Of a stretch of 60,567 nucleotides of DNA, positions 35,551 to 51,234 are shown in pieces (position 1 is the stretch's first letter; each line of letters opens with the position of its first letter). The stretch covers positions 51,798-112,364 of the forward strand of contig CAYGXQ010000002.1 of NCBI GenBank assembly GCA_964354025.1. Reading direction: 5' to 3'. Origin of the DNA: an uncultured Gammaproteobacteria bacterium. Lineage in GTDB: Bacteria > Patescibacteriota > Microgenomatia > 2-02-FULL-39-11. The notes beneath the pieces were generated by a model that saw nothing but the letters and a program-made list of their open reading frames with translations, made no database searches and was not told the DNA's origin. The translations under genes were made by a program, and so were the position numbers.

Positions 35551-35621
35551 CCCAAAGTTGCTCTTTATTAGCCATTAACCTATAATACACCGTTAGCCCA
35601 AAAGTAGAGCGAGGGTAAAAT

Positions 35622-37427: not shown

Positions 37428-37440
37428 ATTATTAAAAGTT

Positions 37441-37467
37441 GACTTTTATCCCCGGGCTCATGGTGGA
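37441..37467 (-). repeat. rplA 3'-end remnant D
   Basis: GACTTTTATCCCCGGGCTCATGGTGGA. Confidence 0.7.
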
Positions 37468-37480
37468 CCTGTTTCACCGA

Positions 37481-38137
37481 TTATTTCGTGATTTTCCGGC
37501 CGATTTCCAAAGAGAGGTTCCGGAAAAAAGATTGCAAAACGGTGAGTTTCAAAGGCTTGATCATTTTGGGTAAAAAAGTAAAATCCTCGGCTTTCAAAAA
37601 GTCCGAGGCAATCAGGAATTGGTCTGTTTCCAGGTGAAATTTAGCTTCAAGTCCATATATTAAATCCCAGATGGTATATTTTTTTAGGAGATAGTAAAGA
37701 TCGACGAAGTCTTTAACATCAGTCCTTTGATTGATAGTTAATAATTTATTAGTCGCGATGTCTCTTAAACTATCCACTGATAAAGGCCCGTCCATTTTTC
37801 CTTTGTGGATCTGTTTATATGGGTAATAGCCGAAATCAATTTTCAGTTCTTTTTTATCAGGAAACTCAAGAAAGAACATATAAACTACTTCGCTGAATTT
37901 AGAAGAAAATTTATAACCGTATTTTTGGGACCATTTATCTACTTTTGAATAAATAACTTCATTATCAAACTTGTTTAAACTGAAAAAATCCAGATCTTCG
38001 GAATAGCGGTGTTTCAAGTGGTACAGGCTTAATGCTGTCCCGCCGGTGAAATAAAAGTTGGAACAAAGAAAAGGGTCATTTTTCAATTCATCCAGTATGA
38101 TTTTTTGATTTCTGGTGATGATTGGTATTTTCCCCAT
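37481..38137 (-). CDS. AbiEii/DUF1814-like nucleotidyltransferase
   Basis: FYFTGGTALSLYHLKHRYSEDLDFF motif. Confidence 0.7.
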   Translation of the reverse strand: MGKIPIITRNQKIILDELKNDPFLCSNFYFTGGTALSLYHLKHRYSEDLDFFSLNKFDNEVIYSKVDKWSQKYGYKFSSKFSEVVYMFFLEFPDKKELKIDFGYYPYKQIHKGKMDGPLSVDSLRDIATNKLLTINQRTDVKDFVDLYYLLKKYTIWDLIYGLEAKFHLETDQFLIASDFLKAEDFTFLPKMIKPLKLTVLQSFFRNLSLEIGRKITK

Positions 38138-38325
38138 ATCAAAAGCTCCAATAAACGCTTTGGTAATCTATATATATGCAATTGATCCCAATTGTATTTA
38201 ATAAAGTGAAGATCCAGTTTTGTCTTACCGGGTCCGTAATTTATCAGTCTCTCCAGCATAAAAAGCCGGCCTTTTTTAGTTTTTCTTAACTCCTTTTCAT
38301 CATAGTCCCAAAGGTGTTTCATCAT
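38083..38325 (-). CDS. Small partner protein of the AbiEii-like gene (80 aa)
   Basis: Overlaps the downstream gene by 55 nt in another frame. The same arrangement is conserved in the second copy (48678..48917). Confidence 0.4.
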   Translation of the reverse strand: MMKHLWDYDEKELRKTKKGRLFMLERLINYGPGKTKLDLHFIKYNWDQLHIYRLPKRLLELLIWGKYQSSPEIKKSYWMN

Positions 38326-38371
38326 ATTAGAATTATATCAGACAGAAGGGGGTATGGGCAACCTGAGTTAA

Positions 38372-38789
38372 TTAATTGAATTTTACTTTTATCCCCGGAC
38401 TCATGGTGGATTTCAGAGTAATATTCTTGATCTTTGTTTCTCCGACGGATTTGGTGAAAGCTTGGAAATTTTCTTCAAGCTGTTTGTCTTTGAAAGACAA
38501 TTTGCCGATGACCTGGTGGATGATGGGAAAATCTGCCTCGGTTTTCCAGGCGATTTCTCCGCCGGTCAGCTTTTCCGCTACTTTTTCCGGAGTAGGTGAG
38601 ATAGTGCCGTTTTTGGGATTGGGCATCAGGCCTTTGGGGCCTAGGAATCGGGCCACTTTGGCCATCACTTGCGGGTGGGCAACGAGGGCGTCAAAATCGA
38701 TTTTGCCTTTTTCCACCGCTTCCACGATTTTATCGATAGTAGCGTTGTCAGCGATGGCTACCCTGATCTTTTTGCCGGTCCCATAGGGG
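38372..38789 (-). pseudogene. rplA: 5'-truncated second copy of rplA (C-terminal ~139 codons)
   Basis: Colinear with 50356-50775 (~85% nt identity by eye). Protein GTGKKIRVAIADNATIDKIVEAVEKGKIDFDALVAHPQVMAKVARFLGPKGLMPNPKNG...SPGIKVKFN. Homology stops at ~38790, exactly where the RAYT-unit inverted repeat begins. Confidence 0.85.
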
Positions 38790-39556
38790 ACGGTCCTTTG
38801 ATATCTTGACAGGACAATCTAGAAATGCAATAGTTTAAACAGATATGCCCCGCGGACCCAGAATTGCTTTCGAGAATGCTTTTTATCACGTCTTCAATAG
38901 GGGAATCGCCTACCAAAAGATTTTTATTGACGATAGCGATTACATAAAGTTCCTAAAAAGGCTTGAAGATCTCAATAATGTCAACGGTTACGATCACAGT
39001 ATTTATTCCTATGTCTTGATGCCCAATCACTTTCATCTTCTTATCCAAACGAAGAAGACTCCTCTTGCCAAAGTCATGTCTTCGCTTCTGACCAGTTACT
39101 CCATGTATTTTAACAGGAAATACAAAAGGATCGGTACTCTTTTCCAAAACAGGTTTAAAAGCAAACTTTGCGATAAAGACAGCTATTTCCTGGGTGCCTC
39201 AAGATATATTCATCTTAATCCTGTTGAAGCAGGTTTAGCAGAAAAGGTTGACGATTATCTTTGGAGCAGTTTTGGGGAGATATTTGGTCATTCTCAATAT
39301 TCAATCATCGATAAAAATGAGATTACCAGATTGGTAGGGGAAACAAACAAAGAGAGGGAATCCTATCGGCAATTTATCCTCTCTGGGATAAAGATAATGG
39401 AAGATATTAAAAATAGCTATTCTTTTGATAAAGATATTGAAGGCAAGCCCAGATTTCAGACTCTCACCCAAAAGAAATATTTGAGAAGAAAAAGACGCAG
39501 AAAGTAAACTATTTAAAATCTAGAAGATCACAACAAGCAATCAAAGGACCGTCCCC
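38786..39556 (+). mobile_element. RAYT/IS200-like unit bounded by a perfect 16-bp inverted repeat
   Basis: GGGGACGGTCCTTTGA (38786-38801) and TCAAAGGACCGTCCCC (39541-39556) flank the Y1 transposase gene. Confidence 0.75.
38845..39507 (+). CDS. Y1 (HUH) transposase, IS200/REP-associated tyrosine transposase-like
   Basis: YHVFNRG, YVLMPNHFHLLI (HUH), GTLFQNRFKS, RYIHLNPVEAGL (catalytic Tyr region), YLWSSF. Confidence 0.8.
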   Translation: MPRGPRIAFENAFYHVFNRGIAYQKIFIDDSDYIKFLKRLEDLNNVNGYDHSIYSYVLMPNHFHLLIQTKKTPLAKVMSSLLTSYSMYFNRKYKRIGTLFQNRFKSKLCDKDSYFLGASRYIHLNPVEAGLAEKVDDYLWSSFGEIFGHSQYSIIDKNEITRLVGETNKERESYRQFILSGIKIMEDIKNSYSFDKDIEGKPRFQTLTQKKYLRRKRRRK

Positions 39557-39578
39557 TAACGGTTCCCTAACGTCGTCT

Positions 39579-39633
39579 ATTACCCTGTCAAATTTTTAGA
39601 TTTGCTTTTCTTGTTGCATAAGCCTATAATATC
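39579..39633 (+). promoter_or_regulatory. Conserved 55-nt promoter block (copy 1)
   Basis: 54/55 identical to 45404-45458. TTGCTT (39602-39607), 17-nt spacer, TATAAT (39625-39630). Confidence 0.65.
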
Positions 39634-39710
39634 CTGTCGCCCAATATATGGGCTTATATTTTATGGGGAAAAAAGAATATAACATCGATTTATGGTGAAA
39701 GGATGATTTT

Positions 39711-41738
39711 ATGATAAGAGATGAACGACAATCAATATCACTTCCGTTTTTTGAAAGACATCCGGAGTATTCGCATCTGGTGGAGCAGGTGAATATAGAT
39801 AGAATAAGAGACAGAATAGACATCTTGTCCGGTATCGCTCATGGGGGTAAGATCGGTGAAGGCGGAGGCAGAGGCCAATTTACACAAGAGGATTTCCGGG
39901 CCAGGGAGACGATGGAAGACTGGGTATGGCAGATGGCCGGCGGGCAGGCAGTTTCAGACAGAGTGGAGACTTACCCTCAGGCGGGAAGATTAAGAAGAAG
40001 TGAAAGTCTCGGATTATCCGTCTGGCAAAATCCTTCAGGCTTAGTGGTATATTTTGAAGGGGAGGATCCGGAAAAAGATGAGCCTTCCGTCGCCGGTTCC
40101 CACACTGATACGATTTATAATGACGCGGGGACGGAAGACGGACAGGAAGGCTGTGCGGCCGCTTTCGAGACTTTAGAAATACTGGTTAATAATTTTCGAG
40201 AGACGGGTAAAAAACCAAAAAGAGGATTTGCGGTGTTGATCGTCACCGGAGAAGACACTCCGCCATACTTTTCCGGCAGCCAGGCTTTGGTTCGAGGACT
40301 TAACAAAGAAGTTCTTGATACCGTTTTAACTCAAGACATCACCTTAAGAGAGGGAATATTAAATTGGGCCAGACATTTCGGAATAAAAGATCTAAAGGAA
40401 GAGAATGTCGATCGGGTTATGTCCCAGCCGCTTCTTGACCAGTCTCCTTATTCCTGGAGTTGGATGTATAGCCATCTTGAACTTCATCCTTTTCCCAATA
40501 ATTCATCAAGAGAGCTTCCGGATATGCTCATGTCAGCGGAAAAAGTACTTGGTTCAACGAAATTAAAATTGACTTTAGAAAAAATTCCATCAATAAAACA
40601 GGTTGATTCAGAGACAATTACCAGTAATGCGCTGATATCTTTTGGCATTAGGGTTACAGGTACCGAAGGACACGCCGCTTCCTTACCTATGGAAGAGAGG
40701 GTGGATGCAGTAAGACTAGTATTGGCCTGGCGGCAAAAAATCCGGGAAATATTGTCACAGGAAAAATATAGAGGGATCACTCTTTATCCATTTGAATTTT
40801 CTATCCCTAATGGTGTGCCAAACAGGGTAGCCGGGTTATCAGAAATGTATTTCACATTGGCATATCCCGTACAGGATAGAAGTAAACAAAGAGAAGTTAG
40901 TAAACTCCTTATGCAGGCAAGAAGAGAAATCGAAGATGAGATCAAACAAGCAAAAACTAAAGAATTGGGAGAAGAAAAAAGCGCAGCAGACTTTTTGGAT
41001 ATAAGTGTTCCAGCTATAGCATTCTCACCGCATTATAAACCCGAAGATCTTGATTATCTTCTTGATCTTGCGGAAAAATATATCTATCTGATTGATTATA
41101 CGTGCAGAGAAAGTACAGCTCATCACAGTAATATGTATCAGACTGCAACTGTCGGAACTATAGGTTTGAGAAACGGGAAAATAGAATTTACTTTGGATTT
41201 AAGATCAGAAGGTAAAACAGCTTTGAAAGTTCTTATATATGATTTAATTAAAACATTTTTCTACCCTCCGTTAAATGTTGCAAAACAAATGATTGTACCT
41301 CTTTTTAAGAGAGATGCTTTAATTATGGGGAGTTATATAAAGCGATTAAAATTAGATCCTGTTGTACGAGATTTAACATTTGATAGAGTCATGTATTTAG
41401 AAAAGGATAAATCAACTAAGAATCCTTTTCCTTATATACTCTCTATAGATGGACCTTTAAGCGGAAGTGAACCTCCGGTAACGATGGACCCGGGACTGAT
41501 TGAGGAGCTGGACGAATTGGGCAAGAGGTTTGCCGGAGTACCGGTTCCGAAAAAATTAATTTTTGCCGGAGAAGATCACCAGGTTCTTGTGGAAAGAGTG
41601 GTAAATGGAAGGATTGGGATGATTTTTCCGGCTTCAAATAATACCCATAAAAAAGATGAACAGACTCCAGTTGAAGCTTTAGAAAAGGCCGCCAAAGTCC
41701 TCGTGGCGCAAAAGATCTCAGAGGTATACGAAGATTAA
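39711..41738 (+). CDS. Oversized (675 aa) M20/carbamoylase-family amidohydrolase-like protein, paralog 1
   Basis: Colinear with the allantoate-amidohydrolase/N-carbamoyl-amino-acid-hydrolase N-terminus: GKIGEGGGRGQFTQEDFRARE, VAGSHTDT, GTEDGQEGCAAAFE, VLIVTGEDTPPYFSGSQAL. The usual EE is replaced by ED. About 260 extra residues. Confidence 0.5.
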   Translation: MIRDERQSISLPFFERHPEYSHLVEQVNIDRIRDRIDILSGIAHGGKIGEGGGRGQFTQEDFRARETMEDWVWQMAGGQAVSDRVETYPQAGRLRRSESLGLSVWQNPSGLVVYFEGEDPEKDEPSVAGSHTDTIYNDAGTEDGQEGCAAAFETLEILVNNFRETGKKPKRGFAVLIVTGEDTPPYFSGSQALVRGLNKEVLDTVLTQDITLREGILNWARHFGIKDLKEENVDRVMSQPLLDQSPYSWSWMYSHLELHPFPNNSSRELPDMLMSAEKVLGSTKLKLTLEKIPSIKQVDSETITSNALISFGIRVTGTEGHAASLPMEERVDAVRLVLAWRQKIREILSQEKYRGITLYPFEFSIPNGVPNRVAGLSEMYFTLAYPVQDRSKQREVSKLLMQARREIEDEIKQAKTKELGEEKSAADFLDISVPAIAFSPHYKPEDLDYLLDLAEKYIYLIDYTCRESTAHHSNMYQTATVGTIGLRNGKIEFTLDLRSEGKTALKVLIYDLIKTFFYPPLNVAKQMIVPLFKRDALIMGSYIKRLKLDPVVRDLTFDRVMYLEKDKSTKNPFPYILSIDGPLSGSEPPVTMDPGLIEELDELGKRFAGVPVPKKLIFAGEDHQVLVERVVNGRIGMIFPASNNTHKKDEQTPVEALEKAAKVLVAQKISEVYED

Positions 41739-41769
41739 ATATTGGACTAGAGATTATAGGGACGGATTA

Positions 41770-41925
41770 TAGGGACGGGGGCAGCGCAAGTTGATAGCAT
41801 CATCTAAAAGACCTTATTTTTCTTGGGAGAATTTTACCTTTCTCCCCGGGCTCTGGGATTAATCCAAAAATTACCCCATAATTTAATTCTCTCAACCGTA
41901 AAAAGCCTGTTAGATAATATATAAT
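41770..41925. repeat. Conserved downstream flank + rplA remnant F + shared 70-nt block
   Basis: 41770-41853 is ~87% identical (73/84 by hand) to 47511-47594 and ends in the remnant GAATTTTACCTTTCTCCCCGGGCTC. 41857-41925 matches 35481-35550. Confidence 0.8.
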
Positions 41926-41968
41926 TTAATCAGTTGCGCAAACAAATATTATAGGTTATAATCCGATT

Positions 41969-42820
41969 ATGCGTCAGGCTTTCAATATTCGCGATGAGTT
42001 TAGCAAACTCAAAGAAGTAATTATCGGCACGGCCGCAAATTTTATTCAGGGAGAAAAGATCAATCGCGGTATGCGCCGGTATTATGGGAAAAAATACGGT
42101 CCTACCAGGCAAAAACTCACGGCAGAATATCTCTATTTAAAAAAAATTTTAGAAGCTCAAGACGTCAAAGTTTATTCTCCCAATCCTTCAAAAGATATTT
42201 CTCAGCAGTTAGCCCCCCGTGACATTGGTTTTGTCGTAGATAGTACGTTTGTCATCTGCAATATGAAATTTGACAGCAGAAAACATGAGATTGATGCGAT
42301 CAGGCACATATTGAATAGATTTACCGGAAAAATTATTAAAACTCCGGATGATGTCAATCTAGAAGGCGGTAACGTATTGGTTGACGGCAAAACAATATTT
42401 CTGGGCATAGGTATAAGAACCAGTCCCAATGCGGTTGATTTTATGAAGAAAAAATTCGGTAAAAAATTCAGGATTATGCCTCTCTACCTTGACCAGAAGG
42501 AGGAAACCATCCATCTTGACGGGGTATTTAATATGATCGGAGATAAAGTCGCTCTTGTCTATCCTCGGGAAATAAAAAAATTGCCCGGAATATTAAGTAC
42601 TTACAAGTTGCTCAAAGTCACCCATGAGGAAAAATTGCTCGGCGCCTGTAATGTTATGGTTGTTGATAATCAAACGGTCATTATCAGAAACAAGCTTCCC
42701 CGGATCAAAAAAATTCTTACAAAATCAGGCTTTAAAGTTTTAATCACTCCCTGGGATGAATCAGGAAAAACCGGTACTACCGGACCTAGATGTGCTTGTC
42801 TGCCGTTAATCAGAAGTTAA
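41969..42820 (+). CDS. Guanidino-group-modifying enzyme fold (amidinotransferase/arginine deiminase/DDAH superfamily)
   Basis: C-terminal TGTTGPRCACLPLIR matches the GGGPRCM..PL nucleophile-Cys motif. LEGGNVLVDGKTIFLGIGIRT and IHLDGVF are also family-like. TATAAT at 41957-41962, 6 nt before the ATG. Confidence 0.65.
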   Translation: MRQAFNIRDEFSKLKEVIIGTAANFIQGEKINRGMRRYYGKKYGPTRQKLTAEYLYLKKILEAQDVKVYSPNPSKDISQQLAPRDIGFVVDSTFVICNMKFDSRKHEIDAIRHILNRFTGKIIKTPDDVNLEGGNVLVDGKTIFLGIGIRTSPNAVDFMKKKFGKKFRIMPLYLDQKEETIHLDGVFNMIGDKVALVYPREIKKLPGILSTYKLLKVTHEEKLLGACNVMVVDNQTVIIRNKLPRIKKILTKSGFKVLITPWDESGKTGTTGPRCACLPLIRS

Positions 42821-42835
42821 TCCTCAATATTTTCG

Positions 42836-43558
42836 TTAAAAACTCTCGACGATTTTACTTTTTAATTTATGAACTGTGTTGGGGAATTCGGCGGTTCTGT
42901 TTACAAATACCTTCTTTATTTTTCCCGGTACTCCCGACAAAATATAAATTCTGTCTCCAAGAGTGATGGCTTCGTCCGTATCATGGGTGACGAAGATGAT
43001 GGTGGTTCTCAACACTTTATGGATATGTAAAAGCAGCTTCTGCATCCGTTTTCTGGTTGTCGGATCAAGAGAGCCGAAAGGTTCATCCAGAAGTAAAACC
43101 TGCGGTTTAAGAACTAAGCTGCGGGCCAGGGCTAGCCTCTGTTTCATCCCTCCGGAAAGCTCAAACGGGTAATATTGCCCGAAAGGCGCCAAACCGACCA
43201 TTTTCAAATATTGCCGGGTAGTTTTTTCAATTTCGGGCATTCCTCTCATTCTTAATCCGAAAGCGACATTTTCGGCCGTCTTCAGCCAGGGAAACAGCCG
43301 CAGATCCTGGAAGACTACGCCGAGGTCGCCGGAGGCGGGAGAAGTGATGATTTTCTTATCCAGCCTGATCTCGCCTGAGGTAGGTTTTACCAGGCCGGCG
43401 ATCAGGCAAAGGAGGGTAGTCTTGCCGCAGCCGGACGGGCCCAAAACCACGTGGATTTTTCCCTTTTCAAAATCGCAATTGATCTTCGCCAGGATTTTGG
43501 CTGTTTGGCCGTTTTTCCGGTAATCTTTACTCAGATTAGTTATCCTCAGGTAATTCAT
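42836..43558 (-). CDS. ABC transporter ATPase (NitT/TauT family)
   Basis: Start MNYLRITNLSK at 43558, directly after the permease stop. Walker A GPSGCGKTT, signature LSGGMKQR, Walker B LLLDEP. The longer ORF to 43993 overlaps the permease and is rejected. Confidence 0.9.
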   Translation of the reverse strand: MNYLRITNLSKDYRKNGQTAKILAKINCDFEKGKIHVVLGPSGCGKTTLLCLIAGLVKPTSGEIRLDKKIITSPASGDLGVVFQDLRLFPWLKTAENVAFGLRMRGMPEIEKTTRQYLKMVGLAPFGQYYPFELSGGMKQRLALARSLVLKPQVLLLDEPFGSLDPTTRKRMQKLLLHIHKVLRTTIIFVTHDTDEAITLGDRIYILSGVPGKIKKVFVNRTAEFPNTVHKLKSKIVESF

Positions 43559-43560
43559 AT

Positions 43561-44361
43561 TTAAAGCTCCAGTATTTTTGACTTTTCCGCCCAGGGGAAT
43601 AATTTCCCATAGGCAAATTTCAATAAACTGTCGATGGTCAGGGCCACCGCCGCGCTGATGACTACCAGGCTGAATATTTCGGTGATATGGACATAACGCT
43701 GGGCCAGTACCAGCCGGTAGCCGATGCCGGAATTGGCGCCTAAGACTTCCGCCAATACGACCGTTGACCAGCTGCTGCCCAGTTCTATCCGGCAGATATC
43801 CCAGATTTGGGGGAAAATCCGGGGGAAAACGATTTTTGTCAGGATCTGTTTTTGGTTTGCTCCCAATACTTTGCCCATCTCGATGTATTCTTTTTCCACA
43901 TTGGCCGCGGCACTGCTGATATACAGTACCAGATAAGGAAGGGCCCGGATGAAAATAAGGGCGATTTTCCCGAATTCTCCCACCCCGAACCACAAGATAA
44001 GCAAAGGGATCATGGCGGCGGCTGGGATAAATCTTAAAAAATTAAAGTAGGGTTCAAAGATATTCTGTATCGGTTTATGGATTCCGCACATTATCCCAAC
44101 CGGGATTCCGACTATGGCGGCCGCAGCAAAACCGGTAGCGACCCGAAAAAGGCTGATGGCGACGTCTTTCAATATTTCTTTATTCCAAATAAGCTGCCAT
44201 ATATCTGCGGCCACACTGGCCGGTTTGGGCAGGGTCAAATCACCGATACCGAATATAGTTTTCAGTATTATCCAGAGAAAGATAAAGATGGCGATAGAGA
44301 AGGGGATCAGCAAAAAGGAGGGATAGGGCGATTTTCTGTTTTTGGTGAAAAATGCGGGCAT
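43561..44361 (-). CDS. ABC transporter permease (NitT/TauT family)
   Basis: Six hydrophobic segments and an SsuC/TauC-like EAA region (MGKVLGANQKQILTKIVFPRIFPQIW). Confidence 0.85.
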   Translation of the reverse strand: MPAFFTKNRKSPYPSFLLIPFSIAIFIFLWIILKTIFGIGDLTLPKPASVAADIWQLIWNKEILKDVAISLFRVATGFAAAAIVGIPVGIMCGIHKPIQNIFEPYFNFLRFIPAAAMIPLLILWFGVGEFGKIALIFIRALPYLVLYISSAAANVEKEYIEMGKVLGANQKQILTKIVFPRIFPQIWDICRIELGSSWSTVVLAEVLGANSGIGYRLVLAQRYVHITEIFSLVVISAAVALTIDSLLKFAYGKLFPWAEKSKILEL

Positions 44362-44370
44362 GGAATCAGT

Positions 44371-45366
44371 TTATCTCAACTTTCCCAAAGTTGACAAATC
44401 GATTATCTCAGAGGCGGTCATCTGCTTGGAGATGATCTTTTCCGCCTGCGCCACGTCAATGATTGACTGGGTGACTTCAAAAACCATTCCTTTTTTATCC
44501 TCCGTGCCGAAATACGCGAGGTTATCCTTTTTGTCAAGCCAGCGGACGGATTCGATGGCTTTGCCAAACTCTACGGCGGTCATGCCGTATTCTTTGGCCA
44601 TGATTTCATTAGCCTCTGTGGGATTGTTTTTCCAGTATTCGAGGCTGTCAAACCAGGCCTTTGCCAGTCCGATAAAAGCGGTCTGTTTATTTTTTACCGC
44701 GTCATTTCTGGCCAGAACAATATCAGTCACCACGTTGGGCGTCTCTTTGCTGGAGATAAGGATATGGCCTTTCCCCTGGGCGACGACATTGCTGATCCAC
44801 GGCTCCATCATCGCTCCGGCGTCTATTTTGCCGGCCAGCATGGCCGGGCCGATCGTCTCATCCGGCATATCCAGAATTTTGATATCTTTATCCTGCAATC
44901 CGTTTTTATTCATCAGGTATTTAAGGAAAAAATAATTGGTAAAGCCTTTGGTGGCGGCCACGGTTTTGCCTTTCAGGTCGGCAAAAGTCTTGATGCTGTT
45001 TTTAGCCACAATGGCGTCGCCGCCGAAAGAAGTATCATAGGCCATGATAATCTTCAGATCCATGCCGGCGTTGATATTAAATACGGCTCCGTCTATCGTT
45101 GGGGTGAGGAAATCTACCTGTCCGGAAGCCAACATCCCTCTTCTGGCGTCGGAACTGCCCACCTTTTCAATTTTTAATTCCAGTCCGTATTTTTTGTCAA
45201 GATTTTTATTTTTAGCCAGATAAAAAGGGGCAAAACCAACCCATTTACCCGAATCAGCGGTAGTGATTTGTGTCAGCTGCGGCGCAGTCTTGTTTTTGGA
45301 ATAAACGGTAAAGAATAAGGAGAAAGCGGCAATGGCCAATATAATTACCAGAATTTTTTTGATCAT
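44371..45366 (-). CDS. ABC transporter substrate-binding protein (SsuA/NMT1-like)
   Basis: Start MIKKILVIILAIAAFSLFF at 45366 (signal peptide). The upstream 51 codons of the ORF run through the conserved promoter block and are rejected. Confidence 0.8.
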   Translation of the reverse strand: MIKKILVIILAIAAFSLFFTVYSKNKTAPQLTQITTADSGKWVGFAPFYLAKNKNLDKKYGLELKIEKVGSSDARRGMLASGQVDFLTPTIDGAVFNINAGMDLKIIMAYDTSFGGDAIVAKNSIKTFADLKGKTVAATKGFTNYFFLKYLMNKNGLQDKDIKILDMPDETIGPAMLAGKIDAGAMMEPWISNVVAQGKGHILISSKETPNVVTDIVLARNDAVKNKQTAFIGLAKAWFDSLEYWKNNPTEANEIMAKEYGMTAVEFGKAIESVRWLDKKDNLAYFGTEDKKGMVFEVTQSIIDVAQAEKIISKQMTASEIIDLSTLGKLR

Positions 45367-45403
45367 ATTTTTATTTATCTTACTATAACAATCTCCATTA
45401 TAC

Positions 45404-45458
45404 ATTACCCTGTCAAATTTTGAGATTTGCTTTTCTTGTTGCATAAGCCTATAATATC
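45404..45458 (+). promoter_or_regulatory. Conserved 55-nt promoter block (copy 2)
   Basis: TTGCTT (45427-45432), 17-nt spacer, TATAAT (45450-45455). The ATG at 45467 is 11 nt downstream, with no SD. Confidence 0.65.
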
Positions 45459-45466
45459 TAGCTATT

Positions 45467-47491
45467 ATGATTGAACGAGATAGGGGAGAAAGAATTCCTG
45501 CTTCATTGGCTGAAATCAAGCCGGGTTTGGCTCTTATTTCCCCTGATTCAATCGAATCTTACAGAAATAGATTGTCCGCCTATTCTTCAGTGGTTACCAG
45601 AGATGGCGACCATCATTATGTTTCTGAAGCCTCCGGTCAACTTATCGGTGAAGGCGGAGGCCGGGCGGCTTTTACCGAACACGGCGATTTCAAAGTGAGA
45701 GAGGAAATTATCACTATCGTCAGGGAAATGCTAACCGGAAAAGCAGGCCAAGAGGGAAGAGAGCTGAAGGAAGAAAGTAGTAAAGATGAAAAAGGAATTT
45801 ATACTATATTCCCTGAATATGGAATTACCATCTGGAATAGTCCGGCCGGTCTGGTTGTCACCTACGCGCCTTCCGGAACCGATGATAAGAAAAAACCCCT
45901 GCGGACTGGTTCGCATCTGGATACACCGGAAGGCAATGCCGGCAGAGAAGACGGCCAGGGAGGTATAGCAGTCACTTTAGAGATGCTTCGCTGTATGATT
46001 GAATCAAAGTATATTCCCGAAAGTCCCATCCAATTGGTCTTCGACACCGCTGAAGAATCAGGGAAGCGGGCTTTCTTAGGCGCCGCCATGTTTGCCCAAG
46101 GCATAGAAGATATTGAACTGGATATCCGGCTTGAAATAGGATTATCTGTAAGGGAGGCAATAGAAAGATGGAGAAAATATTTCCACGCTGACCATTTTGA
46201 TATAAGTTGTCTGTCTGCGCCGCTGTTGCCGCAAGGCCGTTGCTACATCGAGCCCCATGCTTTCCCGGGTAAATTAGATGAAAAAATTATTTTAGCCGCT
46301 CCGGAATCAATCCCCGCTGCCAGAAGGTTTGAAATTATAGTAGAACCTATTGAAAAAGCCGCCAAACAAGCAGTAGAAGTTATGACAAGTAAATATACTC
46401 AGGCTCTGACAATAAAGACCACTGGTACACCGGGTCATCATGCAAGTTTTAAACCAGATGAAAAACTAAGCGCACTGGATAGGCTCGCCAGATTTTTTCC
46501 AAACCTTAAACAAGCCATAACTGAGGTAGAAGGAATTGAGGTTTATATTGTCGAAATGGGTATAAACGGTAAACAGGCGATGAATGTTGTACCCGGAGAG
46601 GCGGAAATGACGTTAGTCGTGGCCGGTGACACGAAAGAAACGGTAACAAATGTAATACAGACTATCGAAGCCGCAAAAGAAGAACATAATGAGCGTCATC
46701 TTTGGCCATATCCTTGTAAATATCCAATTGTCATCAGCCATTCTCCCACTCCTCCTACAATAGATAGCTTGTTTTATGATGCCCAAACCACCTTCAGGTC
46801 TTTCGAAATTACCGCAAGAATGATTAATATTATTGAAAGAAATATAAACTTTTTAGGTAGGATAGCAAACGGTAGAGGAAATATAGGGATACTGGAATAC
46901 AATCCCAGTGGTGAAATCAGTTTTAATGTAGATGTGAGAAGTACTGACTTACACTGGTTAAACGATTGTATCTCCAGTTTCTTAGAAACCATAATACTTG
47001 GTTATCCTAGAGCTGGTAGAAAACCAATAGAAGAAATAGCAGTGGCAGGAACATTAATGACAGAAAAACAACTAAAAAAAATATTTCTAGCTTCGGAAAG
47101 GAGCGTCTATGATGCCATTCTTTATCATCATGTTGATAGTATAAATAATTCAGAACAAGCACTAGGTCATAGGTATATGGATTTTCCTCTACCCACACAC
47201 GTTATTAATTTTAACGGTCCGCTTCCCGGCAGCGTGGATCCTTTATTTCCATCAAAAGATTTACATAGAGTTATTCAGGATGTAGCTCGTGATCTTTATA
47301 AACAGTATGTGCGAAAATTCCCGATCACGGCCGGTGAATCCGGACAGGTTTTTCAGCATATTTCCGATATGGTAAATATGATCTTTGTCCAACAGCAGGG
47401 CGTGACTCACCAACCATCTGAGTATGTGGAACCGGAGCATTGGGCTATGGCCGCAGCCACTCTCTGGGGGACGCTTCATCAGGTTAGATAA
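45467..47491 (+). CDS. Oversized (674 aa) M20/carbamoylase-family amidohydrolase-like protein, paralog 2
   Basis: LIGEGGGRAAFTEHGDFKVRE, RTGSHLDTPEGNAGREDGQGGIAV, VFDTAEESGKRAFLGAAM (EE retained). Colinear with paralog 1, but only motif-level identity. Confidence 0.5.
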   Translation: MIERDRGERIPASLAEIKPGLALISPDSIESYRNRLSAYSSVVTRDGDHHYVSEASGQLIGEGGGRAAFTEHGDFKVREEIITIVREMLTGKAGQEGRELKEESSKDEKGIYTIFPEYGITIWNSPAGLVVTYAPSGTDDKKKPLRTGSHLDTPEGNAGREDGQGGIAVTLEMLRCMIESKYIPESPIQLVFDTAEESGKRAFLGAAMFAQGIEDIELDIRLEIGLSVREAIERWRKYFHADHFDISCLSAPLLPQGRCYIEPHAFPGKLDEKIILAAPESIPAARRFEIIVEPIEKAAKQAVEVMTSKYTQALTIKTTGTPGHHASFKPDEKLSALDRLARFFPNLKQAITEVEGIEVYIVEMGINGKQAMNVVPGEAEMTLVVAGDTKETVTNVIQTIEAAKEEHNERHLWPYPCKYPIVISHSPTPPTIDSLFYDAQTTFRSFEITARMINIIERNINFLGRIANGRGNIGILEYNPSGEISFNVDVRSTDLHWLNDCISSFLETIILGYPRAGRKPIEEIAVAGTLMTEKQLKKIFLASERSVYDAILYHHVDSINNSEQALGHRYMDFPLPTHVINFNGPLPGSVDPLFPSKDLHRVIQDVARDLYKQYVRKFPITAGESGQVFQHISDMVNMIFVQQQGVTHQPSEYVEPEHWAMAAATLWGTLHQVR

Positions 47492-47510
47492 TTGAAGAAT
47501 TATCCGCTAT

Positions 47511-47602
47511 TAGGGACGGGGGCAGAAGAAGTTGATAGTATCATCTAAAATACCTTATTTTTCTTAGGCGAATTTCACTTTTATTCCCGGGCTCATGGCG
47601 GA
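47511..47602. repeat. Conserved downstream flank + rplA remnant C
   Basis: See 41770-41853. The remnant is GAATTTCACTTTTATTCCCGGGCTCATGGCGGA (47570-47602). Confidence 0.8.
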
Positions 47603-47650
47603 CCCAGCCTCGTCGGCAGGCAGGTTTGAGGGTGATACTTCGCGGCAAAC

Positions 47651-48046
47651 TCAAGGAGAAGCGGGGAAAGGATAGAATTTTAGAGATTTGATTTGTCGGA
47701 AATGTTTTAGATTTCGGGTCGCCAGTTTGGCTTTCAGATAAATTGCAGTTTGGGCGATGATATAATCGGCCAAGGGTAAATTCACTTTTTGTCCGTTTTT
47801 GGCGATCCCCGTAAATCGGGCCAGTTCTTTGTCAAAAGGGATAACGGGAAAATTATTCACCAGCTCCGAGAGCAGTTTGTTTGTTTCGACGTCCATTCTT
47901 CCGGCAAAAAGTTCCACGACAGTGACGGAGGAGAGGTATAGTTGGATTTTCCCTGCTAATTGGAGATTTAGAAGTTCTTCATACCAGCTTTTTCCGGTTC
48001 TGAGATAATCGATAATGATATCGCTGTCTAGGATGACTTTTTCCAT
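47651..48046 (-). CDS. vapC: PIN-domain toxin (VapC-like)
   Basis: LDSDIIIDYL, VVELF, ADYIIAQTA, TRNLKHF: acidic residues in PIN order. Confidence 0.8.
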   Translation of the reverse strand: MEKVILDSDIIIDYLRTGKSWYEELLNLQLAGKIQLYLSSVTVVELFAGRMDVETNKLLSELVNNFPVIPFDKELARFTGIAKNGQKVNLPLADYIIAQTAIYLKAKLATRNLKHFRQIKSLKFYPFPASP

Positions 48047-48054
48047 AAAAGAAT

Positions 48055-48339
48055 TTATGCGCCTAACTGACGCATGTAACGGATTTCTTTTTTGCCGCGG
48101 AAGAAATTATTATTATAATCAATCTTTATTTTTCCGATCAGTTTCCGGGAGATAGACAACAGTTTTTTTGCTTGTTCTCTGGCTGTTTGTTCAACCGGAA
48201 TCACTTTCAATATCGTTTTGCCGTCTTTTTCTATCAGTACTTCGCCACCGTCTTCAACCAGGCGGTCGGTTAAGCTGAAAATATTTTTCCTGAAATCAGT
48301 GATGGGGATGAGTACATTCATATGTACGTCAGTGTACAT
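48055..48339 (-). CDS. Phd/YefM-like antitoxin
   Basis: MNVLIPITDFRKNIFSLTDRLVEDGGEVLIEKDGKTILKVIP (probable start 48321). Lies directly upstream of vapC. Confidence 0.6.
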   Translation of the reverse strand: MYTDVHMNVLIPITDFRKNIFSLTDRLVEDGGEVLIEKDGKTILKVIPVEQTAREQAKKLLSISRKLIGKIKIDYNNNFFRGKKEIRYMRQLGA

Positions 48340-48378
48340 AATATGTTAGGGTTTGTCAAGAGGGAGATCAGCTGACTT

Positions 48379-48732
48379 TTACTTCGTGATTTTTCGGCCG
48401 ATTTCCAAAGATAGGTTCCGGAAAAAAGATTGAAGAGTGGTAAGTTCCAAAGGTTTGATCATTTTAGGCAGAAAGTCGAAATCATCGACTTTCAAAAAGT
48501 CAGAGGCGATCAGGAATTGGTCAGTTTTTAGATGAAATTTAGCTTCAAGTCCATATATTAAATCCCAGATTGTATATTTTTTTAAGAGATAATAAAGATC
48601 GACGAAGTCTTTAATATCAGTCCTTTGATTGATAGTCAATAATTTATTGGTCGCGATGTCCCTAAAAGGGTCATTTTTCAATTCATCCAGTATGATTTTT
48701 TGATTTCTGGTGATGATTGGTATTTTCCCCAT
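48379..48732 (-). pseudogene. AbiEii-like gene copy with an in-frame ~101-codon deletion
   Basis: Near-identical to 37481..38137 but jumps from ...LKNDPF to RDIATNKLL..., removing the GG...DLDF nucleotidyltransferase core. Confidence 0.75.
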
Positions 48733-48917
48733 ATCAAAAGCTCCAATAAACGCTTTGGTAATCTATATATATGCAGTTGATCCCAATTGTTTTTTATAGA
48801 GTGAAGATCCAGTTTTGTCTTACCGGGTCCGTAATTTATCAATCTCTCCAGCATAAAGAGCCGGCCTTTTTTGGTTTTTCTTAACTCCTTTTCATCATAG
48901 TCCCAAAGGTGTTTCAT
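48678..48917 (-). CDS. Second copy of the small AbiEii-partner protein
   Basis: 77 of 79 aligned residues identical to 38083..38325. Confidence 0.4.
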   Translation of the reverse strand: MKHLWDYDEKELRKTKKGRLFMLERLINYGPGKTKLDLHSIKNNWDQLHIYRLPKRLLELLIWGKYQSSPEIKKSYWMN

Positions 48918-48968
48918 CGTATTGGAATTATATCAGACAGAAGGGGGAAAGGGCAACTTTAGAGATAA

Positions 48969-49007
48969 TCAATTGAATTTAACCTTTATCCCCGGGCTCA
49001 TGGTGGA
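48969..49007 (-). repeat. rplA 3'-end remnant B
   Basis: TCAATTGAATTTAACCTTTATCCCCGGGCTCATGGTGGA vs 38372-38410 TTAATTGAATTTTACTTTTATCCCCGGACTCATGGTGGA. Followed by a small hairpin TGCCTGAC-AACA-GTCAGGCA. Confidence 0.85.
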
Positions 49008-49061
49008 CATGCCTCGACTGCCTGACAACAGTCAGGCAAGGCGGGTTTCAGAGTTACATTT

Positions 49062-50285
49062 TTAAAAAACGGTCATGGTCAGAAAATCGATGATATTGAT
49101 CTGTTTAATACCCTTATAATCACCCTGTGTCATTTCATCCATGGAAACAACCATTTTAGGATAGTTATCAGGAACATCCAGGAGGTTGCCGAACTCTCTT
49201 TGTTTGACTTTGGGCGAAGTGATCAGATAAGCCACTTGGACATAGATCCTTTTACCGCTTTTCTCGCCGACAAAATCGATGTCTTTTTTATCCAACTGAC
49301 CGATGGATACTTTATAACCCAGATAAGTCAGGTGGCCGAAAACCAGATTTTCCAAAATTTTATTAATGTCCGCCTGCCGGTAACCGATGTAAGTATGCCT
49401 AAGACCTAAATCCTGCCAATAATATTTTTCGTTCACTTCAAAGATTTTCTTGCCGATCACTTCCATCCGGGGTACTTTATGGACAATGAAACTGGAACTC
49501 AGGTTTGAGAGGTAGTTTAAAACAGTATTGGGAGAAAGGGCTATATGCTGGGATTTCAGAAAATCGCTGATTTTTTTGGCCGAAACCAGACTCCCTGTAT
49601 TATCCGCCAGATACTCAACCAGCCTTAAAAGAAAATTGACATTTCTGATGGTATATCTTTCCACCACATCCTTCAATATGATGGTATTGGCGACGCTCTG
49701 TAGATAACCGTAGACAATTTCATCGGTCAGGTCAAGATGGATCAGGTAGGGAAGCCCTCCGTATTTGATATATTTCAGGAGCGAATCGCTGTTTTTTTCC
49801 AGACGGTGGAAATGCAGAAATTCCGGGAATGAAAGCGGATAGACCGGAATTTCCAAAAATCTGCCTGACAAAAGAGTCGCCAGCTCTCCGGAGAGGAGAT
49901 TGGCATTACTGCCGGTACAGTAGATGTCGTATTTTTTGGAAGCAGCCAGATCTCTCAGGGCTTTTTCGAAAAACTGGATATCCTGGATTTCGTCGATAAA
50001 AAGGTAATTTTTCCCCGCTTTTGAGGTTTTGGATTTAATGTATTTGAGTAAGTCATGATATGTACGGATCTGGTCAAACTTATACAATTCTTTATTGATA
50101 TAGATAAAGGCGGCTTTGGGATGGCTTTTTTTGATCTCATCCATAATCTGGAAAAGAAGATAACTTTTACCCGCTCTCCGTTGGCCGGTCAGCACCTTGA
50201 TAATTTCTTTATCTATAAAGGGCTTCACCTTGTCTAGGTATTTCCCTCTTTTGATATATCTTTTAACCATACTTAAAATATACAC
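49062..50285 (-). CDS. AAA ATPase, DUF4143-containing family (paralog 2)
   Basis: Walker A GQRRAGKSYLL, Walker B YLFIDEIQ. Probable start MVKRYIKRG at 50270. Confidence 0.8.
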   Translation of the reverse strand: MYILSMVKRYIKRGKYLDKVKPFIDKEIIKVLTGQRRAGKSYLLFQIMDEIKKSHPKAAFIYINKELYKFDQIRTYHDLLKYIKSKTSKAGKNYLFIDEIQDIQFFEKALRDLAASKKYDIYCTGSNANLLSGELATLLSGRFLEIPVYPLSFPEFLHFHRLEKNSDSLLKYIKYGGLPYLIHLDLTDEIVYGYLQSVANTIILKDVVERYTIRNVNFLLRLVEYLADNTGSLVSAKKISDFLKSQHIALSPNTVLNYLSNLSSSFIVHKVPRMEVIGKKIFEVNEKYYWQDLGLRHTYIGYRQADINKILENLVFGHLTYLGYKVSIGQLDKKDIDFVGEKSGKRIYVQVAYLITSPKVKQREFGNLLDVPDNYPKMVVSMDEMTQGDYKGIKQINIIDFLTMTVF

Positions 50286-50355
50286 GGAATATATATAATA
50301 TTTTAATTATACTTAAAATAGATAATTTGTCAAGGATAGAGGAAATTAGTGGTTA

Positions 50356-51234
50356 TTAATTGAATTTAATTTTGATGCCGGGACTCATCGTTGATTTTAA
50401 AGTAATATTCTTGATCTTCGTCTCTCCGACGGATTTGGTGAAGGCTTTGAAATTTTCCTCAAGCTGTTTGTCTTTAAAAGAGAGTTTACCGATTACCTGG
50501 TGGATGATGGGGAAGTCCGCCTCGGTTTTCCAGGCGATTTCTCCGCCGGCCAGCTTGGCCGCCACTTTTTCCGGAGTGGGTGAAATGGTTCCATTTTTCG
50601 GATTAGGCATGAGACCCTTGGGGCCTAAAAAGCGGGCCACTTTGGCCAGCTTGGCCATCACCTGCGGATGAGCCACCAGGGCGTCAAAGTCGATTTTCCC
50701 TTTTTCGACGGCTTCCACGATTTTATCTATGGTAGTGTTGTCGGCGATGGCGACCCTGATCTTTTTGCCGGTGCCGTGGGGCAGTTGGACATTGCCGCGC
50801 AGACCTTTTTCCGCTACGTTAATATGGAGTTCTACCGTACCGTCAAATTTAGTCAGGGAAATCTGTCGAAGAAGGGCAAGGGCTTCATCAATCGGATAAA
50901 CTTTTTTGTGCTCGATCTTCATCACCGCCGCTTTATAATTGCCTGATCGTACCCGTATTTTGGCTTTTCTTTTGGGTTTTTCCGCTTCAATCTTTATTCC
51001 TTCAGCCTGGTCTTTTTCCACCTGTTCGGTCAGTTTGGCCAGCCGATTAAGTTCCTCTTCACTTTCCGCCCCGACACTCTTTATCCTTTCGCCGCCTTTC
51101 ATGCCGGCGATGTGGATTTTTTCCGGCTTTGCCGCGTGTTCCCTTTTTTTCTTTTCCTCACGGCGAACCTTCTGCTTTTCACGCAGTGCTTCTTCGTTTT
51201 CTCCGCCTAAAGTAGCAACTTTTATTTTTCCCAT
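50356..51234 (-). CDS. rplA: Ribosomal protein L1 with a ~95-aa Lys/Glu-rich N-terminal extension
   Basis: YPIDEALALLRQISLTKFDGTVELHINV...LPHGTGKKIRVAI...ARFLGPKGLMPNPKNGT. 292 aa. Confidence 0.93.
   Translation of the reverse strand: MGKIKVATLGGENEEALREKQKVRREEKKKREHAAKPEKIHIAGMKGGERIKSVGAESEEELNRLAKLTEQVEKDQAEGIKIEAEKPKRKAKIRVRSGNYKAAVMKIEHKKVYPIDEALALLRQISLTKFDGTVELHINVAEKGLRGNVQLPHGTGKKIRVAIADNTTIDKIVEAVEKGKIDFDALVAHPQVMAKLAKVARFLGPKGLMPNPKNGTISPTPEKVAAKLAGGEIAWKTEADFPIIHQVIGKLSFKDKQLEENFKAFTKSVGETKIKNITLKSTMSPGIKIKFN

Follow-up and report, generated by a model that had tools for sequence, protein, structure and literature searches.

Two genes for peptidase family M20 proteins in a CPR-type bacterium raise the question of why short non-coding flanks should be far more alike than the genes that they bracket. 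The genes, M20-1 (39711..41738, + strand, 675 aa) and M20-2 (45467..47491, + strand, 674 aa), lie in a stretch of 60,567 nt, hereafter the window, and each has one conserved block upstream and another downstream. A preliminary description of this DNA likened the arrangement to integron cassettes, and proposed that the flanks are recombination and/or regulatory sites under selection. Here we propose that the two flanks arose separately, the upstream block being a recently copied promoter and the downstream block a scar of repeated foreign-DNA insertion beside rplA, through homology-anchored recombination, a reading to which we give about an even chance.

The M20 genes and their predicted promoter

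Pairwise nucleotide and protein alignments upheld the contrast between genes and flanks. The upstream blocks are 98% and the downstream blocks 87% identical, whereas the coding DNA of M20-1 and M20-2 gave no blastn match (word size 9, E<=1e-3), and the two proteins, compared from end to end, share 25% of their residues (BLASTP 135 bits). M20-2 scores higher with protein P0003 (188 bits) than with M20-1 (135 bits), and the closest relative of M20-1 is P0005/L206; because each window protein is nearer to an outside protein than to its partner, the two appear to be old paralogs. Relatives are rare, with only 6 proteins at E<=1e-30 among 1.84 billion representatives. Both proteins match Pfam PF01546, M20-1 is carbamoylase-like, and the nearest NCBIfam models for the pair are those of carbamoylases and allantoate amidohydrolases, all scores being far below cutoff. 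As in the N-carbamoyl-amino-acid amidohydrolase/allantoate amidohydrolase branch of family M20, the catalytic segment at the N-terminus has matching GSHxDT and EDGQ motifs, and the C-terminal part can be aligned too (nearest solved structure PDB 3n5f), but the window proteins have ~675 aa as against ~410 aa.

The two genes stand on either side of a conserved module made of an ADI/DDAH-fold, guanidino-group-modifying enzyme (41969..42820, + strand; PF02274 and PF19420) and an NMT1-type ABC transporter with ATPase, permease and binding protein (42836..45366, − strand). Its synteny is plain in L207, an unrelated contig with an orthologous M20 gene, where the order SBP-permease-ATPase-ADI-M20 is colinear with that of the window at 54-71% amino acid identity (54% for the ADI-like enzyme, 61-71% for the transporter genes). 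The M20 units would belong functionally to a single ABC-transporter, ADI-like and M20 module for a guanidino/ureido compound, in which the ADI-fold partner would make the ureido substrate for the M20 enzyme.

The upstream blocks, copies of what we call block A (39579..39633 and 45404..45458, + strand), agree at 54/55 positions (blastn E=9e-20), as in the preliminary description, and direct reading of the sequence finds TTGCTT-N17-TATAAT in both, a predicted sigma70-type promoter whose -35 hexamer agrees with TTGACA at 3/6 positions. The first copy lies 78 nt 5' of the M20-1 ATG. The second is the predicted native promoter of M20-2, whose mRNA is probably near-leaderless, because the ATG stands 11 nt past the end of the -10 hexamer and the start region has no Shine-Dalgarno sequence. 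The M20 gene of L207 is preceded by TTGCTG-N17-TATAAT-N11-ATGATTGAA, so that it has the layout TTGCT-N17-TATAAT-N11-ATG in common with M20-2; anchored at the ATG, the two promoters are identical at 24/45 positions (~53%), a score equalled by only 17/121,044 window positions (p ~1e-4). This homology points to the 55-nt block as the native promoter of the M20 lineage. Since the L207 ortholog keeps the architecture at only ~53% identity, the 98% identity of the two window copies would indicate recent copying rather than selection. The regulatory role proposed for the upstream flank thus stands, as does a recombination role for the downstream flank, but selection on the promoter block does not. 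Block A, which lies away from any cassette boundary, may have been homogenised recently between the paralogs by non-allelic gene conversion, or copied once; the one observation behind gene conversion is the 98% identity of block A beside 87% in the other flank. Both genes would then fire from the same predicted promoter. M20-1 has in addition a 77-nt leader (39634..39710, + strand) with a REP-like hairpin, GCCCAATATATGGGC, and a T-run (39639-39653; a terminator-like match with a computed fold), followed by the Shine-Dalgarno sequence AAAGGA. This leader has no counterpart in M20-2, and L207 carries a similar hairpin, CCCAATATAATCGGG.

Displaced rplA tails

The downstream blocks (41770-41853 and 47511-47594) match at 73/84 positions (blastn E=6e-22), and each ends in an rplA 3' remnant, both as the preliminary description had it. 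They open with 53 nt that carry a RAYT/IS200-type tip motif, and continue with the last ~35-39 nt of rplA in antisense. In the first block two tandem copies of the tip motif, ATTATAGGGACGG, together with the remainder of the proximal 53 nt, occupy 41753..41822 (+ strand), and in the second the proximal 53 nt (TAGGGACGGGGGCAG...) occupy 47511..47563 (+ strand). The motif TAGGGACGG is found 3 times where 0.3 would be expected, is homologous to inverted repeats around a RAYT-like ORF in L139 (0/1000 shuffles), and adjoins the M20 gene of L003 too. This 84-nt block, a junction scar not specific to the M20 genes, is one among seven displaced rplA tails.

Live rplA (50356..51234, − strand) differs in its last ~7 codons from the 96%-identical gene of L126. 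Between it and the oldest displaced tail lies an accretion zone of 16.1 kb (34231..50355), and the gap between live rplA/rplK/nusG and rplJ/rplL amounts to 23 kb. The rplA-tail core TCCCCGGGCTCATGG is present in 7 copies on the + strand against 1.1 expected, a number reached in 0/100 shuffles, and the seven displaced tails share one orientation (− strand). The most diverged, r1 (34205..34230), is followed by r2 (35455..35482), which is fused to a further repeat, block C; r3 (37432..37467); and r4 (38372..38788), a 417-nt C-terminal pseudo-copy covering Ribosomal_L1 positions 81-198, 85% identical to 50355-50781 and cut at the tip of a RAYT element. Tail r5 (41823..41857) has a mutated stop codon, and its junction is chimeric, because it resembles r6 on the left and r2 on the right. 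The composite r6 (47564..47638) is made of a tail (47564-47602), a GC-rich 22-nt insert (47603-47624) and the upstream half ATCACCCTCAAA (47625-47638), and has an 87%-identical counterpart 3' of live rplA in L138. The last, r7 (48969..49053), consists of a tail, a 38-nt hairpin and a CTCTGAAA half, a structure found directly 3' of live rplA in strain L126.

Conserved ends with divergent cargo, as first described, are a real property of the locus, where sharp-edged blocks bracket diverged or unrelated sequences. Block C forms a third such pair, its copies being 96% identical over 68 nt ahead of differing cargo, namely an unrelated 601-aa ORF (copy 1, 35483-35550) and the ADI-like gene (copy 2, 41858..41925, + strand). 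A second locus has the same signature, in that a PepD-like gene stands between two copies of a 42-nt tail from a carbonic-anhydrase-like gene.

The arrangement recurs in relatives, in which the rplA-to-rplJ spacing varies from 0.26 to >7 kb. Additional displaced tails were found in L111, L126, L129, L138, L140, L143 and L192, with MazE-Doc, ParE-like, AbiE or unknown cargo, mostly toxin-antitoxin pairs. Homologs of CHAP and p146 come after the remnants in L140 and L143, and are therefore native rplA-downstream genes of the clade, which r1 adjoins in the window.

Joining of the units

As a possible route, DNA of related bacteria would recombine into the chromosome with conserved rplA as homology anchor, the donor bringing a new rplA tail and whatever stood 3' of its own rplA, while the old tail and earlier cargo of the recipient would be displaced away from the live gene. 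The accumulated tails could then act as portable homology where units are reshuffled, and both M20 units may have arrived or been duplicated in this way. Crossovers within the live tail fall at different points: in L129, 143 nt that are 100% identical give way to sharp divergence, in L140 divergence begins at -14, and between the window and L126 at about -21. This variation favours homology-anchored recombination, which we infer to be the joining mechanism. Two considerations weigh on the other side. A join that duplicates its anchor is an unusual outcome for homology-facilitated illegitimate recombination, which counts against an anchor mechanism. Furthermore, 9/16 displaced tails start at the identical base, between AAA and TCCACC, several of them preceded by ...CAGG, and in 5 a GC-rich palindrome lies exactly at this recurrent breakpoint, a pattern that resembles site-specific joining and that homologous recombination by itself does not predict.

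The same breakpoint, recurring at -39 next to unrelated sequences, is what would be expected if a tyrosine or serine integrase, acting in trans or lost from all units, used the rplA tail as its attB/attP core, as in tandem islands at tRNA or tmRNA genes. Target-gene tails form direct repeats around each unit while the live gene stays intact, L126 and the window look like the empty and the occupied state of a site for the AAA_14b unit, and precedent exists in tycheposons, where sequential integration leaving partial target copies is documented (bioRxiv 10.1101/2020.12.28.424599). We nevertheless consider site-specific integration unlikely. The 60-kb window yielded no integrase, and neither did the 25 listed of the 45 families matched by 73 gap ORFs from related loci; tail length varies (33 to 417 nt), as does the position of the crossover within the live tail; and in L129 the 143-nt 5' part of the remnant matches the host gene at 100% identity, unexpected for element-borne DNA.

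Y1_Tnp is the sole recombinase family in the gap ORFs, among the matches listed, and the window holds a RAYT/IS200-like Y1 transposase element (38784..39558, + strand; 54-nt inverted repeats tipped by TAGGGGACGG) with an intact gene (38845..39507) that has the HUH motif as HFH, YIHLNP and a catalytic Tyr motif. Such a transposase might nick single-stranded DNA at hairpins, or between AAA and TCC beside rplA, and mobilise or capture adjacent segments, with the 53-nt block and the GC-rich palindromes as its footprints. At 38788 the tip of the element directly adjoins rplA sequence, homologs lie inside the rplA-rplJ gap of L130 and of L196, whose rplA is truncated by the element, and the motif that opens the M20 downstream blocks flanks the RAYT-like ORF of L139 and adjoins the L003 M20 gene. 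This agency is doubtful, however, as IS200/IS605-type transposition is not known to make a target duplication, most displaced tails (r1-r3, r7; L111, L129, L140, L143, L192) lack an adjacent RAYT-type sequence, the inverted repeat of the window element has no significant similarity to the 53-nt block, and motif counts are small.

Purifying selection alone, on a promoter/operator and on a terminator or 3' UTR element of two co-regulated paralogs, with no role for recombination, would agree with the promoter architecture kept in L207 and with the place of both paralogs in one metabolic module. We hold it very improbable, as the ~53% identity of the L207 promoter means that selection does not hold the sequence at 98%, the downstream blocks fold no better than shuffles (z = 0.06 and -0.22) and gave no match in an Rfam search, and part of each is a dead rplA tail with five further copies in the island.

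An integron-like array with attC-type flanks is hardly credible, even though a ~30-nt site recurs at the borders of the small units in the array and their toxin-antitoxin cargo is typical of chromosomal integrons: the cassette analogy drawn at the outset fails, as the 60 kb contain no IntI-like gene or other integrase, the blocks have neither an imperfect-palindrome fold (z ~0) nor a GTTRRRY core, the units point in both directions and bring promoters of their own, and the repeated site is a gene tail. An artefact of metagenome assembly behind the repeated blocks or the unit order is scarcely conceivable either, although unit order across short repeats rests on one MAG assembly, Logan contigs end within repeats and none independently bridges the joint of r5 and block C (41849-41896); Logan assemblies of two independent runs reproduce each gene with its flanks at 100% identity (L001, 39604-41849; L002, 45429-48562), the repeats of 55-86 nt, with exact runs of ~30 nt, are shorter than one read, and related loci from other projects have the same architecture.

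Comparison with known systems

Chromosomal integron cassette arrays likewise have small units, rich in toxin-antitoxin genes, separated by a short repeated site, but the window lacks IntI, attI, a Pc promoter and an attC fold, its repeated site is a gene remnant, and its units carry their own promoters in mixed orientation. With REP/RAYT systems (REPtrons, REPINs) the locus shares a single-copy Y1 HUH transposase gene between inverted copies of a short motif, and solo copies in intergenic DNA directly 3' of genes; the copies here are few, as counted in 60 kb alone, the motif has no obvious stable palindrome, and a tie to rplA tails and an M20 clade is no described RAYT property.

Homology-facilitated illegitimate recombination and 'minimal mobile elements' are known in naturally transformable bacteria. 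There too a conserved flanking gene serves as anchor, and whole genes are swapped between conserved flanks without a dedicated recombinase, with divergent alleles in between. The window differs in the repeated duplication of the anchor tail into an array, and in the recurrent -39 breakpoint, unexpected under such a mechanism.

In tandem genomic islands and tycheposon-type arrays, at the 3' end of tRNA and tmRNA genes, DNA also enters beside a conserved gene whose 3' end is regenerated, older units and partial target copies are pushed deeper, cargo is variable with some units lacking mobility genes, and related genomes share the hotspot. Here, by contrast, the array lies in a CPR-type bacterium and its target, rplA, encodes a ribosomal protein; none of the units yielded an integrase, and the variable tail length and crossover point suggest homologous rather than site-specific exchange. 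The rplA locus would thus be an unusual example of an already known type of gene-insertion hotspot.

Repeat pairs flanking the M20 genes

Self-comparison of the window by blastn showed that the sequences upstream of the two M20-like genes, at 39579-39633 and 45404-45458 (block A), agree at 54 of 55 positions (E = 9e-20), and that those downstream, at 41770-41853 and 47511-47594, agree at 73 of 84 (E = 6e-22), which bears out the near-identical upstream and ~87% identical downstream blocks of the preliminary description. The coding regions, M20-1 (39711..41738, 675 aa) and M20-2 (45467..47491, 674 aa), gave no DNA match in the same comparison, and the proteins are 25% identical when aligned end to end, so that the divergence of genes between conserved flanks, also claimed there, holds. 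Each gene was recovered with its flanks at 100% identity in independent Logan assemblies of two sequencing runs, whose contigs end inside the repeats. M20-2 scored 188 bits against the M20 homolog P0003 and M20-1 scored 158 bits against the homolog at locus L206; against each other, the window proteins scored 135 bits. Since each is nearer to an outside protein than to its partner, the genes are old paralogs and the promoter alone is young; a recent duplication of the pair is thereby ruled out.

The M20 proteins scored 35 and 46 bits against Pfam PF01546 (cutoff 24.6 bits) and fell far below the cutoff of all NCBIfam carbamoylase/AllC models (71 vs 399 bits); they belong to peptidase family M20, outside every named subfamily. 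The nearest enzymes are N-carbamoyl-amino-acid and allantoate amidohydrolases, than which the window proteins are about 265 aa longer. Word-indexed homolog searches with both proteins returned self-matches alone, and a profile built from the two, run against 1.84 billion representatives, found only six sequences at E <= 1e-30, including both window proteins. One homolog, P0006, was located on contig L207 (15.8 kb). Genes for an NMT1-type binding protein, a permease, an ATPase and an ADI/DDAH-fold enzyme are followed there, all in the same direction, by an internally deleted M20 gene. The first four products are 71, 65, 61 and 54% identical to the proteins encoded at 41969-45366 of the window, where the M20 genes flank the ABC and ADI set on either side, and this colinearity indicates that ABC, ADI and M20 genes form a conserved module. 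Look-ups of the ADI-like gene and of the window's RAYT gene gave only repeat-truncated contigs or nothing. It is plausible that the ADI-fold enzyme makes a ureido compound which the carbamoylase-like hydrolase then cleaves, and the M20 pair, ADI-fold enzyme and ABC transporter together constitute a rare, testable catabolic module.

By reading, the sequence upstream of M20-2 is TTGCTT-N17-TATAAT-N11-ATGATTGAA, as had been described for the hexamers, and that upstream of the L207 M20 gene is TTGCTG-N17-TATAAT-N11-ATGATTGAA, with the same spacing from the -10 hexamer to the ATG and with -35 and -10 hexamers and a 17-nt spacer of sigma70 type. Anchored at the ATG, block A and L207 agree at 24 of 45 bases, a level reached at only 17 of 121,044 window positions. 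From this shared layout block A is predicted to be the native sigma70-type promoter of this M20 lineage. At M20-2 the -10 hexamer ends 11 nt before the ATG and there is no Shine-Dalgarno sequence, and the predicted transcript would be a nearly leaderless mRNA. The proposal that selection keeps the two copies alike fails, since the L207 promoter is only about 53% identical and a selected promoter function does not account for 54/55; both copies must therefore derive from a recent common source. Non-allelic gene conversion over a short patch of ancestral homology would be the simplest origin. The patch is limited in copy 1 by a RAYT element on the left and by a 77-nt leader on the right, the latter containing a REP-like hairpin and a Shine-Dalgarno sequence. 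At L207 11070-11460, after the degraded M20 gene, at least six different GC-rich hairpins form a BIME-like region, one of which, GTCCCAATATAATCGGGAC, resembles the M20-1 leader hairpin. It had also been suggested that the flanks be sought in metagenomes; exact searches found no match to block A in JGI metagenomes or viral contigs, and none in viral contigs to a third repeat pair, block C (35483-35550 and 41858-41925), and neither block has relatives across the 1.66 Mb of loci compared.

The downstream block has another composition. On the rplA strand both copies read as an rplA tail followed by 53 nt ending in CCGTCCCTAAT, so that the distal part, recognized earlier as an rplA remnant, is simply the fifth (r5, after M20-1) or sixth (r6, after M20-2) of seven displaced rplA tails in the window. 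Tail r6 reads ...SAMSPGIKVKFA-stop, and the stop codon of r5 is mutated. The proximal 53 nt open with TAGGGACGGGGGCAG, which occurs three times where 0.3 would be expected, is confined to the sequences behind the M20 genes, with a tandem pair behind M20-1, and closely resembles the TAGGGGACGG tips of 54-nt inverted repeats at the window RAYT gene. Similarity of the whole 53-nt block to that inverted repeat is not significant, so the link to RAYT ends rests instead on locus L139, where the motif matched the inverted terminal repeats of a RAYT-like ORF at a score reached by 0 of 1000 shuffles. Two tandem copies of ATTATCAGGGACGGGG adjoin P0003 in opposite orientation, just upstream of the gene at L003 140-177, where two tandem 20-nt repeats (AGACCCCGTCCCTGATAAT) carry the motif found downstream of the window M20 genes. 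The 53-nt motif has no exact match in viral contigs. Shuffled sequences fold as well as the blocks do (z = 0.06, -0.22, 0.70, 0.70), the repeat search reported no inverted repeats within the downstream blocks, and the flanks matched no Rfam family; with the RNA structure and Rfam searches negative, we discarded the readings as riboswitch, sRNA, terminator or attC.

At r5 the junction is chimeric. The left side is r6-like; on the right stands the 68-nt block C at 41858-41925, which is 96% identical to 35483-35550, the sequence to the right of r2. Block C precedes an unrelated 601-aa ORF after r2 and the ADI-like gene after r5. The two arms of r5 thus match different tails and assort independently around them, which would be the expected product of recombination within tails. 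The view of the flanks as recombination or regulatory sites under selection therefore stands in part, one flank being regulatory and the other a recombination junction, and falls as to selection. The flanks themselves have ordinary explanations, and the wider structure with its seven tails is the more interesting.

Displaced rplA tails and the accretion zone

The tRNA-Trp, nusG, rplK and rplA genes lie at 50.4-57.1 kb on the minus strand and rplJ-rplL at 26.5-27.5 kb, which separates rplA from rplJ by about 23 kb; the two are normally only a few hundred bases apart. By L1/L11 similarity the nearest named relatives are Levyibacteriota and Curtissbacteria MAGs, and the L1 identity of 44-53% suggests a genome of CPR/Patescibacteria type. 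The core of the last rplA codons, TCCCCGGGCTCATGG, has seven plus-strand copies at 34.2-49.0 kb (1.1 expected; seven reached in 0 of 100 shuffles). Alignment identified all seven as copies of the rplA tail in one orientation, many with the stop codon and each next to a different sequence, while the live rplA is intact. One of them (38372-38788) reaches 417 nt and is 85% identical to live rplA. Between them lie two AAA_14/DUF4143 ATPases (34257-35456 and 49062-50285, on opposite strands and 26% identical, a second strongly diverged paralog pair in the island), a 601-aa ORF of unknown function, two AbiE toxin-antitoxin copies, a Phd/PIN pair, a RAYT-like Y1 transposase and the M20/ADI/ABC gene set. 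GC content does not distinguish these units. Pfam scans of ORFs of at least 100 aa found no integrase, resolvase or DDE transposase in the 60 kb, the Y1 transposase being the sole recombinase, and the window encodes no natural competence machinery.

A protein-guided scan yielded 80 metagenomic loci with rplA relatives, in which rplJ lies from 0.26 kb to more than 7 kb from rplA, many having no rplJ within 10 kb. Displaced tails occur downstream of live rplA at L111 (two), L126, L129, L138, L140 (two), L143 and L192, and the cargo at related loci is MazE-Doc, a ParE-like pair, AbiE or ORFs of unknown function. A 19-nt degenerate rplA-tail pattern run over genome contigs was unspecific, with 118 mostly unrelated matches, and gave L102 and L111. 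In L126, where L1 shows 96% identity to that of the window, the AAA_14b unit is absent, and rplA differs from the window gene only in the last ~7 codons. Homologs of the window's CHAP-domain and 146-aa genes come after the tails at L140 and L143; in the window these genes sit just past the first tail (r1), which makes r1 the oldest tail and defines the accretion zone as 34231-50355. Among 73 gap ORFs (at least 120 aa) at related loci, Y1_Tnp, at two loci, was the only recombinase-type family, and no integrase was present, among the 25 families listed of 45 hit. The rplA-rplJ interval of L196 holds a RAYT homolog of 49% identity (6380-7260), and the element end replaces the last ~23 rplA codons. 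GC-rich palindromes of 20-38 nt are found exactly between ...ATCACCCTCAAA and TCCACC... of displaced tails (window 47603-47638 and 49008-49053; L126 1789-1834; L138 5322-5355; L140 about 3650-3688), the L138 insert CCTGCCTGCCGGCAGGCAGG being a perfect palindrome.

Other repeats occur elsewhere in the window. The displaced-tail signature recurs at 18473-20234, where a PepD-like M20 dipeptidase gene (18517..20082, minus) lies between 42-nt direct repeats, 93% identical, that correspond to the 3' end of the adjacent carbonic-anhydrase-like gene (20194..20556). A 63-68-nt block with hairpins (2706-2773 and 16568-16635, 95% identical) precedes two unrelated genes, one ribulose-phosphate epimerase-like and one for a HATPase_c protein. 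A 57-nt repeat in both orientations (1371-1427, 30411-30467 and 31768-31807, 86-93% identical) looks like a dispersed intergenic hairpin element, and the hairpin motif GGAATAGCGCAATTTATTGCGCGCC is present at three intergenic sites (3299-3334, 8629-8664 and 22127-22158). AT-rich 95-nt inverted repeats, 82% complementary and 53 kb apart (1048-1142 and 54473-54567), enclose most of the window. A 1085-aa ORF without a Pfam match contains three tandem 225-nt repeats (14808-15482) with 70-72% identity, and a 1680-aa ORF (3509-8551) has a C-terminal peptidyl-tRNA hydrolase as its only recognisable domain.

Possible modes of joining

We give an even chance to homology-anchored exchange at rplA, in which donor DNA would replace the live rplA tail and the host's own end would be retained behind the cargo. 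Live and displaced tails diverge at about -37 within the tail in L129, after 143/143 identical bases, and at -14 in L140, and window and L126 tails diverge at about -21; the 5' part of a displaced tail is identical to the host gene, and the tail of the live gene is foreign. Varying divergence points and host-type remnants favour such an anchored exchange over a fixed-site recombinase, against which tail lengths of 33-417 nt also speak. However, nine of 16 displaced tails start at one base, -39 (AAA|TCCACC), and five have a 20-38-nt GC-rich palindrome exactly there, a pattern that looks site-specific, argues against the homology-anchored model and is unreconciled with the other evidence. This conflict between a recurrent breakpoint and variable crossovers sets the weight we give to anchored exchange and to its rivals. 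The recurrent AAA|TCCACC start speaks for a trans-acting integrase that joined the units at the rplA tail; we consider this unlikely, none having been found in the window or among the 25 families listed of 45 hit in gap ORFs. Somewhat less likely still, the last 39 nt of rplA could be a universal docking site in one CPR clade, with accretion by trans-acting joining and no unit-borne integrase. The accreting units, which comprise toxin-antitoxin pairs, ATPases and a metabolic module, would all carry a portable promoter block. A trans-acting Y1 (RAYT-type) enzyme, or some other site-specific activity that cuts AAA|TCCACC, would join them, and the result would amount to an "integron without an integron integrase" founded on a ribosomal protein gene. 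Joining driven by a RAYT process is improbable.

Seven displaced rplA tails mark a recurrent accretion site, with no integrase detected. CPR/Patescibacteria have tiny genomes, and their route of gene gain is poorly understood. Here one spot beside a ribosomal protein gene has gathered 16 kb of foreign units. Several related environmental genomes vary at this spot and bear the same displaced-tail scars, with no integrase detected among the families listed for them. Should joining prove homology-anchored, it would show how highly conserved genes offer landing pads to DNA taken up from relatives; a site-specific mode would imply a recombination activity not yet known. Annotators are warned by this case that "conserved non-coding flanks" may turn out to be dead gene tails or recent promoter copies instead of selected regulatory elements. 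Searching the literature brought up no account of an rplA hotspot in Patescibacteria, and a paper on gene exchange in this group (PMC12455944) does not mention one.

Comparison with known systems

Integron cassettes, to which the flanks had been likened, have IntI, attI and Pc beside the array, whereas Pfam scans of ORFs of at least 100 aa found a Y1 transposase as the only recombinase in the window; attC is an imperfect inverted repeat with a GTTRRRY core that folds into a hairpin, and the downstream blocks have no such fold; and cassettes are mostly promoterless and in one orientation, whereas here promoter-like blocks A and C lie inside units with genes on both strands. As all of these tested features fail, the likeness to an integron cassette array is not upheld.

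The RAYT gene of the window has the signature of a Y1 HUH transposase (PF01797 at 5e-10, with HFH and YIHLNP motifs), with 65 bits against NF047646 REP_Tyr_transpos, under the 80-bit cutoff. RAYT genes are flanked by inverted repeat copies, as this one is by 54-nt arms (38784-38837 and 39505-39558, 76% complementary), and inverted copies of TAGGGACGG likewise flank the RAYT-like ORF of L139. REP/RAYT systems have many dispersed extragenic copies; within these 60 kb there are three of TAGGGGACGG and three of TAGGGACGG.

Tandem islands at the 3' end of a conserved gene share more with this locus: direct repeats copy the target end, the live gene stays intact, and one site holds different cargo in relatives, here L111, L126, L129, L138, L140, L143 and L192. 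Such islands carry an integrase in at least some units, which went undetected here (window, and 25 listed of 45 gap families), and have a fixed crossover core; here the live-tail points vary, but 9/16 remnants start at -39. Tycheposons, as one described example, accrete in tandem beside a conserved gene's 3' end and leave partial target copies (bioRxiv 10.1101/2020.12.28.424599). From tycheposon-type arrays the present locus differs in its ribosomal-protein target, its CPR host, its lack of a detected integrase and its variable crossover. Among known kinds, it comes closest to integrative elements that accrete in tandem at a conserved gene's 3' end.
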